The notes: generated by a model not told the origin, from the sequence alone. Counted from the first letter of the stretch, positions 46,060 to 53,376 are shown. The stretch: 64,000 nucleotides of DNA from Zootoca vivipara (GCF_963506605.1 NC_083280.1:51026001-51090000); one strand, 5' to 3'. Numbers and translations: made by a program.

Positions 46060-46724
46060 CCCTATATTCTCTGACAACAGAGATACCTCATATCTGGCAA
46101 AGCTAGCTGTTGTCGGTGTTAGCTATGATGAGATACAGTGGTGCAGATTCCTGCTACTTCATACCATCTGTGTGGATTCATTTGATTGCATTGTGCATTA
46201 TCCAGTTGTAGTTTCTTCCATATAACAGTAGCTCTACTTCCCTCAAGTAGGTCAGATGAGAGTGATTTCACTTTCCCCTGGGAATGAGAGGCTCAGTGTG
46301 AATAATCTGTACTGTGATCTCCAATGCACTAACTAGTTGAAAATCCGCTCTTTTAAAATGGGCACTCCTAGGCTAGCTGTTTTTTATCTGAATCCCCAGG
46401 AGCTTCACTGACTTGCAGAAGATTAGAATTGACTCCCCTGCATTAATTGCAGCTTCTTGTTTAAGCAATAGGTGAATGAGCGTTTGATCTCAAAGGTTGT
46501 CATCTCTCTCCAGAGAGAACCGTTATCAAAATGTCACCCGGATAACATCAAATCCAGGCTCCCAGTGGCCTCAGAGGTTAGGAAGGAAAAAGATGAACAG
46601 AACAAGGGGTATACTGAGCTTGCTGTGGTCTTAGAATCATAGAATCATAGAATCATAGAATCATAGAGTTGGAAGAGACCACAAGGGCCATCCAGTCCAA
46701 CCCCCTGCCAAGCAGGAAACACCA

Positions 46725-49646
46725 TCAAAGCATTCCTGACAGATGGCTGTCAAGCCTCTGCTTAAAGACCTCCAAAGAAGGAGACTCCACCACACTCCTT
46801 GGCAGCAAATTCCACTGCCGAACAGCTCTTACTGTCAGGAAGTTCTTCCTAATGTTTAGGTGGAATTTTCTTTCTTGTAGTTTGAATCCGTTGCTCCGTG
46901 TCCGCTTCTCTGGAGCAGCAGAAAACAACCTTTCTCCCTCCTTTATATGACATCCTTTTATATATTTGAACATGGTTATCATATCACCCCTTAACCTTCT
47001 CTTCTCCAGGCTAAACATACCCAGCTCCCTAAGCCGTTCCTCATAAGGCATCGTTTCCAGGCCTTTGACCATTTTGGTTGCCCTCTTCTGGACACGTTCC
47101 AGCTTATCAGTATCCTTCTTGAACTGTGGTGCCCAGAACTGGACACAATACTCCAGGTGAGGTCTGACCAGAGCAGAATACAGTGGTACTATTACTTCCC
47201 TTGATCTAGATGCTATACTCCTATTGATGCAGCCCAGAATTGCATTGGCTTTTTTAGCTGCTGCATCACACTGCTGACTCATGTCAAGTTTGTGGTCAAC
47301 CAAAACTCCTAGATCCTTTTCACATGTACTGCTCTCAAGCCAGGTGTCTCCCATCCTGTATCTGTGCCTTTCATTTTTTTTGCCCAAGTGTAGTACTTTA
47401 CATTTCTCCTTGTTAAAATTCATCTTGTTTGCTTTGGCCCAGTTGTCTAATCTGTTAAGGTCATTCTGAAGTGTGATCCTGTCCTCTGGGGTGTTAGCCA
47501 CCCCTCCCAACTTGGTGTCATCTGCAAACTTGCTCAGGATTCCCTCAAGCCCATCATCCAAGTCATTGATAAAGATGTTGAACAAGACTGGGCCCAAGAC
47601 AGAACCCTGTGGCACCCCACTAGTCACTACTCTCCAGGATGAGGAGGAGCCATTGATGAGCACCCTTTGGGTTCGGTCAGTAAGCCAGCTACAAATCCAC
47701 TGAATGGTAGCATTGTCTAGCCCACATTTTACCAGCTTCTTTACAAGAATATCATGGGGCACCTTGTCAAAGGCCTTGCTGAAATCAAGATAGGCTACAT
47801 CCACAGCGTTCCCTTCATCTACCAGGCTTGTAATTCTGTCAAAAAATGAGATCAGATTAGTCTGACATGACTTATTTTTCAGGAACCCATGCTGACTTTT
47901 AGTGATCACAGAGTTTCTTTCTAGGTGCTCACAGACTGTTTGCTTAATGATCTGCTCTAGAATCTTTCCTGGTATTGATGTCAGGCTGACTGGGCGGTAA
48001 TTGTTTGGGTCCTCTCTTTTCCCCTTTTTGAAAATAGGGACAACATTTGCCCTCCTCCAGTCTGCTGGAACTTCGCCTGTTCTCCAGGAATTTTCAAAGA
48101 TTATTGCCAGTGGTTCTGAAATCACCTCTGCCAGTTCTTTTAATACTCTTGGATGTAGTTCATCTGGCCCTGGAGACTTGAATACATCTAAACTAGCCAA
48201 GTATTCTTGTACTACCTCCTTACTTATTCTGGGCTGTGTTTCCCCTGCTGAATCATCTGCTCCATATTCTTCAGGTCGGGCGTTGTTTTCTTTCTTGGAG
48301 AAGACTGAGGCAAAGAAGGCATTGAGGAGTTCTGCCCTTTCTCTGTCCCCTGTTTGCATTTCACCATCTTCTCCTCTGAGTGACCCCACTGTTTCCTTGT
48401 TTTTCCTTTTGCTACGGACATACCCATAAAAGCCCTTTTTGTTGCTTTTAACCTCTCTGGCGAGCCTGAGTTCATTCTGTGCTTTAGCTTTTCTGACTTT
48501 GTCTCTACACGTGCTGGCTATATGTTTGAATTCCTCTCTGGAGATTTCCCCCCTTTTCCATTTTTTGTACATATCCCTTTTAAATCTTAACTCAGTCAAA
48601 AGTTCTTTAGATAGCCAGCCTGGCTTCTTTAGGCACCTTCCATGTTTCCGTCTCATTGGTATTGCCTGAAGTTGTGCTTTTAATATCTCCCTTTTAACAA
48701 ACTCCCAACCATCATGAACTCCCTTCCCTTTTAGTATTACTGTCCATGGGATTTCACCCAGCTTTTCCCTAAGTTTTCTGAAGTCGGCTTTTTTAAAGTC
48801 TAGAATTTGGACCTTAGTATGCTTGGTTGCTCCTTTCCGCTGGATAATAAACTCCAGAAGAGCATGGTCACTCCCACCTAATGATCCTGCCACTTCTACC
48901 CCACTAACCAAGTCATCACCATTGGTTAGGACCAGATCTAAAATGGCTGATCCTCTTGTTGCTTCTCCCACTTTCTGGACAATGAAGTTGTCTGCAAGGC
49001 CAGTGAGGAATCTGTTCGACCTTATGCTCTTGGCTGAGTTTGACATCCAACAAATATCAGGATAGTTGAAATCCCCCATTACTACTATCTCACTTCCTTT
49101 GGAATGCTTGGCCATCTGTTCCAGGAAGGCATCATCTGTGTCCTCAGTTTGGCTTGGGGATCTATAGTAAACTCCCACAATGAGGTCACTGTTGTTTTTC
49201 TCTCCCTTAATTTTGACCCAGATACTCTCAATTTGGCTTTGAAGTTTTAAATCCTGGATCTCTTCACAGGTATACATATCCCTAACATATAAAGCTACTC
49301 CTCCTCCTTTCCTGTTTGGTCTATTTCTCTTAAATAGATTGTATCCCTCTATTACTACATTCCAGTCATGAGACTCATCCCACCAGGTTTCAGTGATGCC
49401 TATTATGTCATATTTAGTTTGCTGTACCAAGAGCTCAAGTTCATCTTGTTTATTTCCCATGCTCTGTGCATTAGTATACAGACATTGAAGACCGTTGATC
49501 ATTCCCCCATGTCTCTTATTTAAGGATATTTTCGTCCCACCACTAGGTCTGCATGCTGCTTGCTCCATTTGGTCCTTGACATTTGGATGATCATCTTCAG
49601 CATTTGATAGACTCCTACCTTCAGGACCACTGTCTCCCTCCCCCAC
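46725..49646 (-). CDS. CR1 ORF2: APE endonuclease plus reverse transcriptase (start uncertain; the track start is GTG)
   Basis: 973-aa open frame. EN motifs YTNAQS, ITETW, GDFN, LDL, SDH; RT motifs [23 protein letters not shown]. Confidence 0.95.
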
Positions 49647-49651
49647 ATAAG

Positions 49652-50692
49652 TCAGTTTAAAGCCCTCCTGATGAGGTTTTTGAGTTTTGTGGCAAAAACA
49701 TTCCTCCCAACTTTTGTGAGGTGCAGTCCATCACTTGCCAGAAGTCCATCTTCAAGAAACTGCAGACCGTGATCTAGGAATCCAAACCGTTCCTGTTTGC
49801 ACCATTTGCGAAGCCAGTTGTTCACTTCCCCTATTTTTCCCTCTCTCCCTGGGCCATGTCGTTCAACTGGGAGGACAGAAGAGATGACAATTTGTGCATC
49901 TAATTGCTTCAACTTCCTGCCCAGAGCCTCATAATCATTTTTGATCTTCTGTAAGCTATGGCTTGCAGTGTCATTGGTTCCCACATGCACCAAAAGGAAG
50001 GGGTATTTGTCGGTGGGTTTTATGATTCCTTGCAGCCGTTCTGTTACATCTTTGATCTTGGCCCCAGGTAGACAGCACACCTCTCGAGACATCTTGTCAG
50101 GCCCACAGATCACTGCTTCTGTACCCCTCAGTAGGGAATCCCCAATCACCACTACACGCCTCTTCATGGGCTTGGTTGGGATACTTCTATGTGCTGTCCC
50201 TTCCAAGGTTACCTGCATATTTCCAGAGGACTGACTTGGTTGCTCGTCTTCATATTCCTCATCAACTGTGATGAGGGAGAGATCCTCAGGTGGAGTCTGT
50301 TCCTCGTCTTCCATGAGCACTTCAAAACGGTTGTGTAATTCTAAGCACTCAGAGCGATCCCTGGGCCTTCTACTTCTATGAGTCACGTTCCTCCATACAT
50401 CTGGCTGCTGTGTTGGGGAACTGACCTCCTCCTCAGGGAGATCCCCTGTCTCCTCCTTGGTGCAGACAGTGTGCTCTGCTGCATCCAAGAAAAGCTCCAG
50501 TTCTTTAATTCTCTGGAGCGTAGATACACGCCCCTGAAGCTGCTGCACCTTCTCTTCCAGAAGGGCAACCTTGTTTTCTAGTAGGGCAACCAACTTACAA
50601 TTGTTGCAGGTGTAGCTACCCACATCCTTTGGCAAGAAAACAAACATTGCACAGGAATTGCAGGTGACAATGGTTGTTCCCTCCACCTCCAT
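49652..50692 (-). CDS. CR1 ORF1: zinc finger/leucine zipper plus SGNH esterase-like domain
   Basis: CxxC..CxxC, heptad leucines, GDS..HVGTND..DGLH motifs; strong Kozak context aagATGG. Confidence 0.93.
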
Positions 50693-50769
50693 CTTGAAAA
50701 CCTTGAGGTCAAGGGGGAAAGAGGAAGAGGCCTAGGTCCCCCCTAACAAACGTATGAGACTTGCTGCTA

Positions 50770-52487
50770 TCCAAGCTCTGACTAGCTCCGCCCACAGCTA
50801 ATCACCTGAACTTCCTGACTCACACTTCTAGGTGAAAGGTCACAGCCAGAAACAAACAAGGTCACAGCCAGAAACAAACACCCACACAAGCCTGGACAGT
50901 CACCCAAATCCAAGAGGCAGCAGCCCTAGAAAACCAGCACAAGCACACAAACAAGTAAGAAAACAAATAAGCACACAAACTTACTCACACACAGCCCCAA
51001 AAGACAAAACCACAAAACCTACAGAGTGTCTCCCAAGCTCAGCTCACCTTCTGCTCCTTCCTCAGTCACTGCACTCCAAGCTCTGACTAGCTCCGCCCAC
51101 AGCTAATCACCTGAACTTCCTGACTCACACTTCTAGGTGAAAGGTCACAGCCAGAAACAAACAAGGTCACAGCCAGAAACAAACACCCACACAAGCCTGG
51201 ACAGTCACCCAAATCCAAGAGGCAGCAGCCCTAGAAAACCAGCACAAGCACACAAACAAGTAAGAAAACAAATAAGCACACAAACTTACTCACACACAGC
51301 CCCAAAAGACAAAACCACAAAACCTACAGAGTGTCTCCCAAGCTCAGCTCACCTTCTGCTCCTTCCTCAGTCACTGCACTCCAAGCTCTGACTAGCTCCG
51401 CCCACAGCTAATCACCTGAACTTCCTGACTCACACTTCTAGGTGAAAGGTCACAGCCAGAAACAAACAAGGTCACAGCCAGAAACAAACACCCACACAAG
51501 CCTGGACAGTCACCCAAATCCAAGAGGCAGCAGCCCTAGAAAACCAGCACAAGCACACAAACAAGTAAGAAAACAAATAAGCACACAAACTTACTCACAC
51601 ACAGCCCCAAAAGACAAAACCACAAAACCTACAGAGTGTCTCCCAAGCTCAGCTCACCTTCTGCTCCTTCCTCAGTCACTGCACTCCAAGCTCTGACTAG
51701 CTCCGCCCACAGCTAATCACCTGAACTTCCTGACTCACACTTCTAGGTGAAAGGTTACAGCCAGAAACAAACAAGGTCACAGCCAGAAACAAACACCCAC
51801 ACAAGCCTGGACAGTCACCCAAATCCAAGAGGCAGCAGCCCTAGAAAACCAGCACAAGCACACAAACAAGTAAGAAAACAAATAAGCACACAAACTTACT
51901 CACACACAGCCCCAAAAGACAAAACCACAAAACCTACAGAGTGTCTCCCAAGCTCAGCTCACCTTCTGCTCCTTCCTCAGTCACTGCACTCCAAGCTCTG
52001 ACTAGCTCCGCCCACAGCTAATCACCTGAACTTCCTGACTCACACTTCTAGGTGAAAGGTCACAGCCAGAAACAAACAAGGTCACAGCCAGAAACAAACA
52101 CCCACACAAGCCTGGACAGTCACCCAAATCCAAGAGGCAGCAGCCCTAGAAAACCAGCACAAGCACACAAACAAGTAAGAAAACAAATAAGCACACAAAC
52201 TTACTCACACACAGCCCCAAAAGACAAAACCACAAAACCTACAGAGTGTCTCCCAAGCTCAGCTCACCTTCTGCTCCTTCCTCAGTCACTGCACTCCAAG
52301 CTCTGACTAGCTCCGCCCACAGCTAATCACCTGAACTTCCTGACTCACACTTCTAGGTGAAAGGTCACAGCCAGAAACAAACAAGGTCACAGCCAGAAAC
52401 AAACACCCACACAAGCCTGGACAGTCACCCAAATCCAAGAGGCAGCAGCCCTTCTGCTCCTTCCTCAGTCACTGCACTCCAAGCTCT
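50770..52487 (-). repeat. Tandem array in the CR1 5' UTR: five 305-bp units plus one 183-bp internally deleted unit
   Basis: Period 305 (50770, 51075, 51380, 51685, 51990, 52295). The only substitution noticed is C>T at 51756. The terminal unit lacks 122 nt. Confidence 0.97.
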
Positions 52488-52787
52488 TGAACAACTCAGA
52501 TATTTTTTTAATAGTCAGTTGAATTTCCCAGGGATCCCCAAATGGGTAATGGAAGCCACTCTAATTAGTTGTCTGAAATGGAACTGTTCTGTTTTACTCT
52601 GACATAGGCTTGCTGTCAGAGGGGCTCGAGGAGGATAATGGCTAATTTCCCTCTAGACTGAGACTATTGCTGGGTTATAGGTTTTTTGTGGTGTCCTTCC
52701 CTGGTTGCTTTTTTTTCTTTGCATTTTTTAAAAGCAGAATTCACCTAACACCCCTTGACAAGTAGTGCATGTATTTTGTACTCAGGT

Positions 52788-53216
52788 TGTGAGGGACAGG
52801 GGATATCACGAAGTCCCTCCCCTCCTGAGTTCAAGCCCATCCCCGAGCACAGGGGAAAGCAGAGAGAGTTCCGATTCCAGTGGGGAAGCAGGAAGTCGTG
52901 TCCGAGGCTCAGGCAAGGTAGAGGAGCCAGGGTCCCAGGTGGGACAGGAAGGGGCAAATAAGGGGGGGGAGACCCATCCCCCCAACTCCGGAATTACGCA
53001 GAAAGAGGAGGGGAAAGAGGATGGGTCTGCCAAAGCTTTTGTGTTGGAGAAAGACGCGCCAAAAGCCATTCGGAGGTTCTGAAACCGAATGACCACATCG
53101 CTCCGTGTAAATAGCAATGACTTCAGCACTGTAAATACGCAGCACCAATAAAAGAATAAAATGCAGAGCTGTGTAGCGTCGTTACTCTGAAGTAGCCTGC
53201 TCCGGCCACTGTGACA
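52788..53216 (+). mobile_element. Solo LTR, copy 2 (429 bp)
   Basis: TG..CA termini, AATAAA, 5-bp TSD caggt; colinear with 11202-11625. Confidence 0.88.
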
Positions 53217-53376
53217 CAGGTACACAGAAAGATTAGAATTAATCCAAAGGTCAAAGAGCTATTTTTCACAAGACATTTAAACCGGTGTGGCAAAATCAGC
53301 TTGGATGCTGCATGGAAGTAGAGACTTAAATGATGAGCAACTTTCTGGTTGGCAATCTTGACTTTGTATGAAAAAC

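Follow-up and report, generated by a model that had tools for sequence, protein, structure and literature searches.

How the second open reading frame of a LINE is translated is a long-standing question to which, as far as we know, L1, SART1 and a small number of other elements alone have given an answer, namely reinitiation. The question arises again at a locus of the lizard Zootoca vivipara, within a stretch of 64,000 nucleotides (GCF_963506605.1 NC_083280.1:51026001-51090000; hereafter, the window), where the first ORF of a CR1 element ends on what looks like a viral slippery site. CR1 is the dominant LINE of birds, with more than 410,000 fragments in chicken (PMC11835228).

A full-length CR1 element with an esterase ORF1

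The window holds a full-length, intact LINE on the minus strand, running from about 52490 to 46632, with the following parts (all on the minus strand):

50770..52452: 5' UTR, a 305-bp unit in 5.5 tandem copies with 99% matches (repeat analysis)
49652..50692: ORF1, 346 aa, ending A-L-N-stop, with a CX2CX14CX2C motif, a coiled-coil-like stretch and an SGNH/GDSL esterase
49655..49661: slippery heptamer T TTA AAC, X XXY YYZ in the phase of ORF1 (read from the sequence)
49652..49654: ORF1 stop TGA, directly 3' of the heptamer (TAG or TAA in relatives)
49640..49644: G5 run starting 10 nt past the heptamer, a candidate unpaired stimulator (nucleotide-level conservation)
46725..49661: ORF2, 978 aa from the TTT of the heptamer, in the -1 frame, which is open over 49730-46725
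49566..49568: first in-frame AUG of ORF2, aa 32, ahead of the endonuclease motif
49502-49500: second in-frame AUG of ORF2, aa 54, also ahead of the endonuclease motif
46632..46667: 3' tail, 8-bp repeats in 4.5 copies (repeat analysis)

The tandem 305-bp units of the 5' UTR parallel the promoter monomers of mouse L1, and we take the 8-bp repeat tail to be the CR1-type 3' end. The ORF1 frame extends from stop to stop over 50731-49652; its esterase was assigned to PF13472 by a domain search (E 2.4e-9), and its zinc-finger motif was read off the translation. ORF2 encodes an APE endonuclease (aa 64-266, PF03372) and a reverse transcriptase (RT; aa 546-762, PF00078). By its zinc finger and SGNH esterase, its APE and RT domains and its octamer tail, the element is a CR1 LINE with an esterase ORF1, and its best protein match, 99% identical, is labelled Zootoca vivipara. 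The same layout of both ORFs characterizes the esterase-ORF1 subgroup described in the main texts on CR1_7 and type IVB elements (Metcalfe and Casane, 2014, PMC4120745; Schneider et al., 2013, PMC3905857), in which a zinc-finger/leucine-zipper and esterase ORF1 precedes an APE and RT ORF2. Reads from two raw RNA runs labelled as this species fall in each of the 30 bins and span the junction in both orientations at a depth of 5-21, and such thin cover gives no indication of full-length transcripts or translation.

Two further observations concern the flanks of ORF1 and of the element. Directly before the ORF1 ATG, a pyrimidine tract is followed by AG dinucleotides (50693-50730, minus strand), a possible splice acceptor, and just past the 5' end of the element lie two opposite-strand open frames, of 107 and 150 codons (52759-53258).

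The window's CR1 family is young and abundant. Among 783 candidates, the best 40 match the window at every one of 451 bases spanning the junction, and a pattern with free wobble positions recovered at least 432 copies from the lizard's own genome, the 100 listed all reading TTTAAAC TGA; a pattern requiring a non-T ahead of the Leu codon matched 3 copies. Copies this young are uninformative on selection, and the informative comparison is that across families. A second family in the same genome, sought with a pattern free at all synonymous sites, gave 31 matches, of which 26 read TTTAAAC and one TTTAAAT, two differ and two are chance-like. In a third, old family, with about 70% identity between copies, the site is present in 10 of the 19 loci that reach the ORF1 end, and most loci without it look like decayed forms. 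At G000:C2:118167122-118180623, four junction matches on one strand recur at a constant interval of 4,490 bp, which makes them a tandem array of nearly full-length elements joined head to tail.

Conservation of the junction heptamer

ORF1 ends GCT TTA AAC TGA with a phased heptamer at 49661-49655, exactly as an earlier note on this DNA had described, and the note was also right that ORF2 passes through the heptamer in the -1 frame. TTTAAAC alone occurs 16 times in the window, counting both strands; what lifts the junction heptamer above chance is its place, phase and conservation, not its mere presence.

A metagenome scan with an ORF1 alignment yielded 55 loci, of which 33 end before the ORF1 end and 22 reach it. 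Fifteen of the latter carry [T/G]TTAAAC followed by a stop, three have the heptamer with a mutated stop, one has a single mismatch and three, which belong to one related set and show no endonuclease further on, have no site. The esterase-like ORF relatives of L069, L079 and L082 (26-28% identity) lack the heptamer, no endonuclease turned up downstream of them, and they probably represent another element type. From these sources we assembled 19 representative junctions (the window, three of family 2, three of family 3 and 12 metagenome loci), picked among loci showing a recognisable junction and hence not an unbiased sample; the ten with at least 100 open ORF1 codons, whose ORF1 proteins are 20-72% identical, made up a codon test.

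In all ten families the final Leu is encoded by TTA, which elsewhere accounts for 23 of 168 Leu codons, and the final Asn by AAC, elsewhere used for 21 of 51 Asn codons. Other invariant Leu columns use four to five codons and the other invariant Asn column is split 5:5 among the ten families, while four-fold sites of the window agree with those of the other nine at 60 of 194 positions, near saturation. The codon ahead of the final Leu specifies seven different residues (A, L, C, S, H, Y, F), yet it ends in T in 18 of the 19 junctions; the lone exception, L059, reads G TTA AAC, and a G TTA AAC (GUU) form is listed as tolerated for equine arteritis virus (PMC3542737). A stop adjoins the heptamer in 19/19. 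The comparison indicates that the heptamer is conserved as nucleotides beyond protein need: its predicted invariance, wobble positions included, held across divergent families, and the terminal 'LN*' proved to be constrained at the nucleotide level.

A tree of the endonucleases, drawn with database relatives of which none is a named CR1 reference, groups L031, L036 and L041 with bird proteins and sets L056, L057 and L059 on a separate supported branch, 33-35% identical to the window. ORF2 lies in the -1 frame in all relatives with an intact stretch from junction to endonuclease, in agreement with the constant relation proposed earlier; decayed copies, which carry indels, lack this relation. 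Moreover, the -1 frame is shut one to three codons upstream of the heptamer in 6 of the 19 junctions, so that ORF2 is unable to begin earlier there.

Traces of the signal in ORF1 and ORF2 proteins

Among 247 listed ORF1 relatives, 144 have their last catalytic motif 18-45 residues from the end, that is, a complete last helix, and 105 of these end in LN and 7 in GN. LN ends occur in named lizards, a snake, turtles, an alligator, birds, frogs, a coelacanth, sharks and rays, the shark, turtle, crocodilian, frog and coelacanth elements being known here from their protein ends. Dereplication left 52 ORF1 tails (20 LN, 6 GN, 26 neither). The residues E, K, Q, M and W, which have no codon ending in T, precede LN in none of the 20 dereplicated tails, whereas positions nearby have them in 31 of 140 cases (p = 0.01). 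Exceptions are three proteins ending ELN, which is incompatible with T TTA AAC; they were collapsed during dereplication.

All seven GN ends are QGN (P0275, P0293, P0294, P0310, P0312, P0334, P0359), and five tails have S/R/T-K-N near the end (P0307, P0335, P0345, P0353, P0363). Both groups are distant esterase ORF1s, and the slippery sites that their ends would allow are G GGA AAC for the first and A AAA AAC for the second; U_UUA_AAC, G_GGA_AAC and A_AAA_AAC are named together among the shiftiest heptamers in a review (PMC5009743). No usable relatives were found in viral and prokaryote collections.

The ORF2 side can be read in the same manner, since LN-stop in one frame combined with FKL in the -1 frame forces TTTAAAY. 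F-K-L lies upstream of the endonuclease in 23 of 129 ORF2-frame proteins examined, from six named species belonging to a lizard (Podarcis), four birds (Theristicus, Mycteria, Anas, Limosa) and a stingray (Hypanus), with many of the rows coming from one stork family. Most of the remaining proteins begin at a later Met, and F-K-L cannot appear in them. Natural in-frame ORF1-ORF2 fusions were not evident among nine long matches, a weak negative with 7,999 candidates scored; by their domain lists, the nine are gene-model chimeras.

A fixed G run and no shared structure downstream

Canonical frameshift sites are followed by RNA structure, and the earlier note had pointed to a G-rich stretch with possible pairings. 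The run consists of five Gs (49644-49640) rather than four, and the pairings did not survive comparison with shuffled sequence (z = +0.93, with 167 of 200 shuffles folding as well); pseudoknot prediction downstream of the junction, run as had been proposed, supported neither a hairpin nor a pseudoknot stimulator. For the 95 nt that follow the heptamer in the window, predicted folding is matched by shuffled sequence (z of about +0.8 to +0.93). The fold z-score falls below -2 in only 2 of the 19 junctions, and just three of them have a stem, beginning 3-12 nt past the heptamer, that outperforms almost every shuffle, with no common pseudoknot. A shared pseudoknot or hairpin stimulator was rejected, the stem surpassing shuffles only in family 3 (L156, L160) and L051. 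Long-range pairing of the G run was likewise discarded (the best partners differ in place among 10 loci, and none is common), as was a three-tier G-quadruplex, since no more than 2 of the 19 junctions contain four G3 runs in a span of 70 nt. With no conserved structure downstream, the junction departs in this respect from a canonical pseudoknot-type site.

In L156 and L160 of family 3, the G run sits 7 nt past the heptamer and can pair with a C-rich stretch some 45 nt further on, forming a stem better than 59-60 of 60 shuffles. A structure-type stimulator is possibly present in lizard family 3 only.

What is shared downstream is the G run itself, which starts 10 nt past the heptamer in 15 of the 19 junctions (9 where an extra G precedes it); in family 3 and L059 the spacer is about one codon shorter. 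Across those 15 junctions, codon 6 of the -1 frame has G as its third letter without exception, although six different residues occur there, and 14 have GGG as codon 7, as against 30 of 112 Gly codons further on. An invariably G-ending codon 6 next to a mostly GGG codon 7 shows that the run is kept as nucleotides. Linear 3' stimulators located at 11-15 nt are described as tied to trans-acting factors, and an umbravirus site is described as needing a nearby stop for shifting (PMC5009743). In CR1 the pause might come from the adjacent stop and the unpaired G run instead of a pseudoknot, most likely by way of a protein bound there or of a contact with the ribosome where the mRNA enters; we hold this to be slightly less likely than not. 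The stop and G run would then stand in for the pseudoknot, the weakest step in the account that follows.

Frameshifting and its rivals

A phased heptamer, a stop and a G run kept together in distant families make it likely that the ORF2 product comes from ribosomes slipping back one base, and we are fairly confident that this CR1 element uses U UUA AAC for programmed -1 ribosomal frameshifting and so makes its endonuclease and RT as part of an ORF1-ORF2 fusion. Most ribosomes would stop at the end of ORF1 and release ORF1p, and in a minority the Leu and Asn tRNAs on UUA AAC would re-pair on UUU AAA and continue into ORF2. The product of this tandem slippage is predicted to be 1,322 aa long, matching the fusion of about 1320 aa that the earlier note had proposed, and a low ORF2p:ORF1p ratio would thereby be set; the heptamer without a stimulator may give a low shift rate. 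Counting against frameshifting are the lack of a conserved stem or pseudoknot, the AUGs ahead of the endonuclease in the window copy, the 26 of 52 dereplicated tails that end in neither LN nor GN, the ELN proteins and, out of the 22 metagenome loci extending to the end of ORF1, the three that have no site. A broader version is tentative and, taken whole, doubtful: reptile, bird and cartilaginous-fish CR1s with esterase ORF1s, together with those of a distant non-vertebrate-clade branch, might all produce a Gag-Pol-like fusion by an ancient -1 shift. The stimulator would then be of a new type, in which a trans-acting protein, perhaps ORF1p acting as feedback, recognizes the stop plus unpaired Gs set at a fixed distance of 10 nt, and some lineages would have swapped to G GGA AAC or A AAA AAC.

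Reinitiation is the route described for SART1 and L1 (PMC5972666), and CR1 ribosomes could similarly terminate and restart at a nearby AUG or near-cognate codon, the conserved letters being a cis restart signal; candidate starts in the window are a CUG overlapping the UGA, a GUG, or the AUG at aa 32. (A GTG start and a later AUG at the 5' boundary of ORF2 had been noted correctly, but this AUG lies 26, not 25, codons past the GTG.) Stop-start overlaps such as AUGA would also yield the -1 phase, one UGGGA lies 55 nt upstream of the stop in the window, and the AUGs ahead of the endonuclease in the window copy, like those 2 nt past the stop and in frame in the bird-like loci L031, L032 and L036, mean that reinitiation could serve some families, alone or beside the shift. 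However, an in-frame AUG overlapping or near the stop exists in only 4 of the 19 junctions, the window not among them, and an upstream UGGGA in only two (the window at -55, L156 at -60); in 13/15 junctions codon 3 reads CUA, which is no near-cognate start codon, and codon 5 takes eight forms. In L056, with an open ORF1 end and a 963-aa open ORF2, no AUG occurs ahead of the conserved Asn in the first endonuclease motif, as is true of L057, L051 and two Limosa proteins, and in L056 and L057 the first Met comes 14 residues past that Asn. Reinitiation would also leave unexplained the fixation of precisely an X XXY YYZ in phase, and we judge it unlikely.

Still less probable is that TTTAAAC-stop-N7-GGGGG is a non-translational cis element, such as a splice, RNA-binding or DNA signal, whose match to a frameshift site is coincidental. 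The lack of RNA structure downstream and a G run resembling a linear binding site would suit such an element, and in TAG families the CTAG might pass for a splice acceptor, but families with TGA and TAA have no AG there, and none of the 15 joints listed of 35 in the two RNA runs (depth 5-21) skips the junction. The block is, moreover, always tied to the ORF1 stop and the -1 phase, while the stretch separating it from the endonuclease can be as short as about 35 codons or as long as about 100. The least probable reading, with hardly any weight left to it, is that a Leu-Asn C-terminus is required by the esterase, with the heptamer arising merely from this protein constraint. N346 is indeed invariant in 41 of 41 aligned ORF1 proteins, which were selected as full-length, but protein constraint cannot account for the choice of TTA from the six codons for Leu, for AAC over its one synonym, or for the T at the wobble position of a residue that varies, and LN stays last although the length of the tail past the last helix varies; the ten-family codon test largely refutes it.

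Relation to known systems

The CR1 junction resembles ORF1a/1b of coronaviruses and arteriviruses and retroviral gag-pol in placing X XXY YYZ at the end of the upstream ORF with the polymerase in the -1 frame, but its host is a non-LTR retrotransposon and it has no conserved stem-loop or pseudoknot 5-9 nt downstream. The trans-activated shifts of arteriviruses (nsp1beta and PCBP acting on CCCANCUCC) and cardioviruses share with it a short linear motif at a longer fixed spacing, which is 11 nt in PRRSV (PMC5009743) and 10 nt in CR1; the CR1 motif, however, is G-rich, and the likeness is one of spacing only. Closer in element type are Dictyostelium TRE5-A and TRE3-A, APE-type LINEs of another clade with an unrelated ORF1, for which a -1 frameshift is stated to be required for ORF2 in a review figure legend that gives neither slippery site nor experiment (PMC5911963). 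L1 and SART1 likewise have a bicistronic LINE RNA and a low ORF2 output, but the CR1 junction shows neither the 63-nt spacer of L1 nor the UAAUG overlap of SART1 (PMC5972666), and the CR1 product would be a fusion.

The LINE coverage of the available text of that reinitiation review is confined to SART1 and L1; the available text of a 2016 frameshifting review ascribes L1 ORF2 to a form of initiation and does not mention CR1, and the word frameshift is absent from the main texts of PMC4120745 and PMC3905857. Our literature search found no paper on CR1 frameshifting, with the classic CR1 papers and supplements outside its reach and an earlier mention possible there.

Implications for CR1 biology

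Cumulatively, the comparisons show that an otherwise ordinary copy of CR1 carries a real signal of the recoding type, conserved over great distances, and a frameshift route for CR1 ORF2 is likely on sequence grounds. If this is true, the N-terminal part of the CR1 replicase consists of the zinc finger and esterase of ORF1, and the Met from which ORF2 is usually annotated is the wrong one; several large ORF2 protein clusters start inside the endonuclease. Constructs for CR1 retrotransposition assays would have to retain the native junction, and CR1 would constitute a large cellular-genome case of -1 recoding with an apparently structure-free stimulator.
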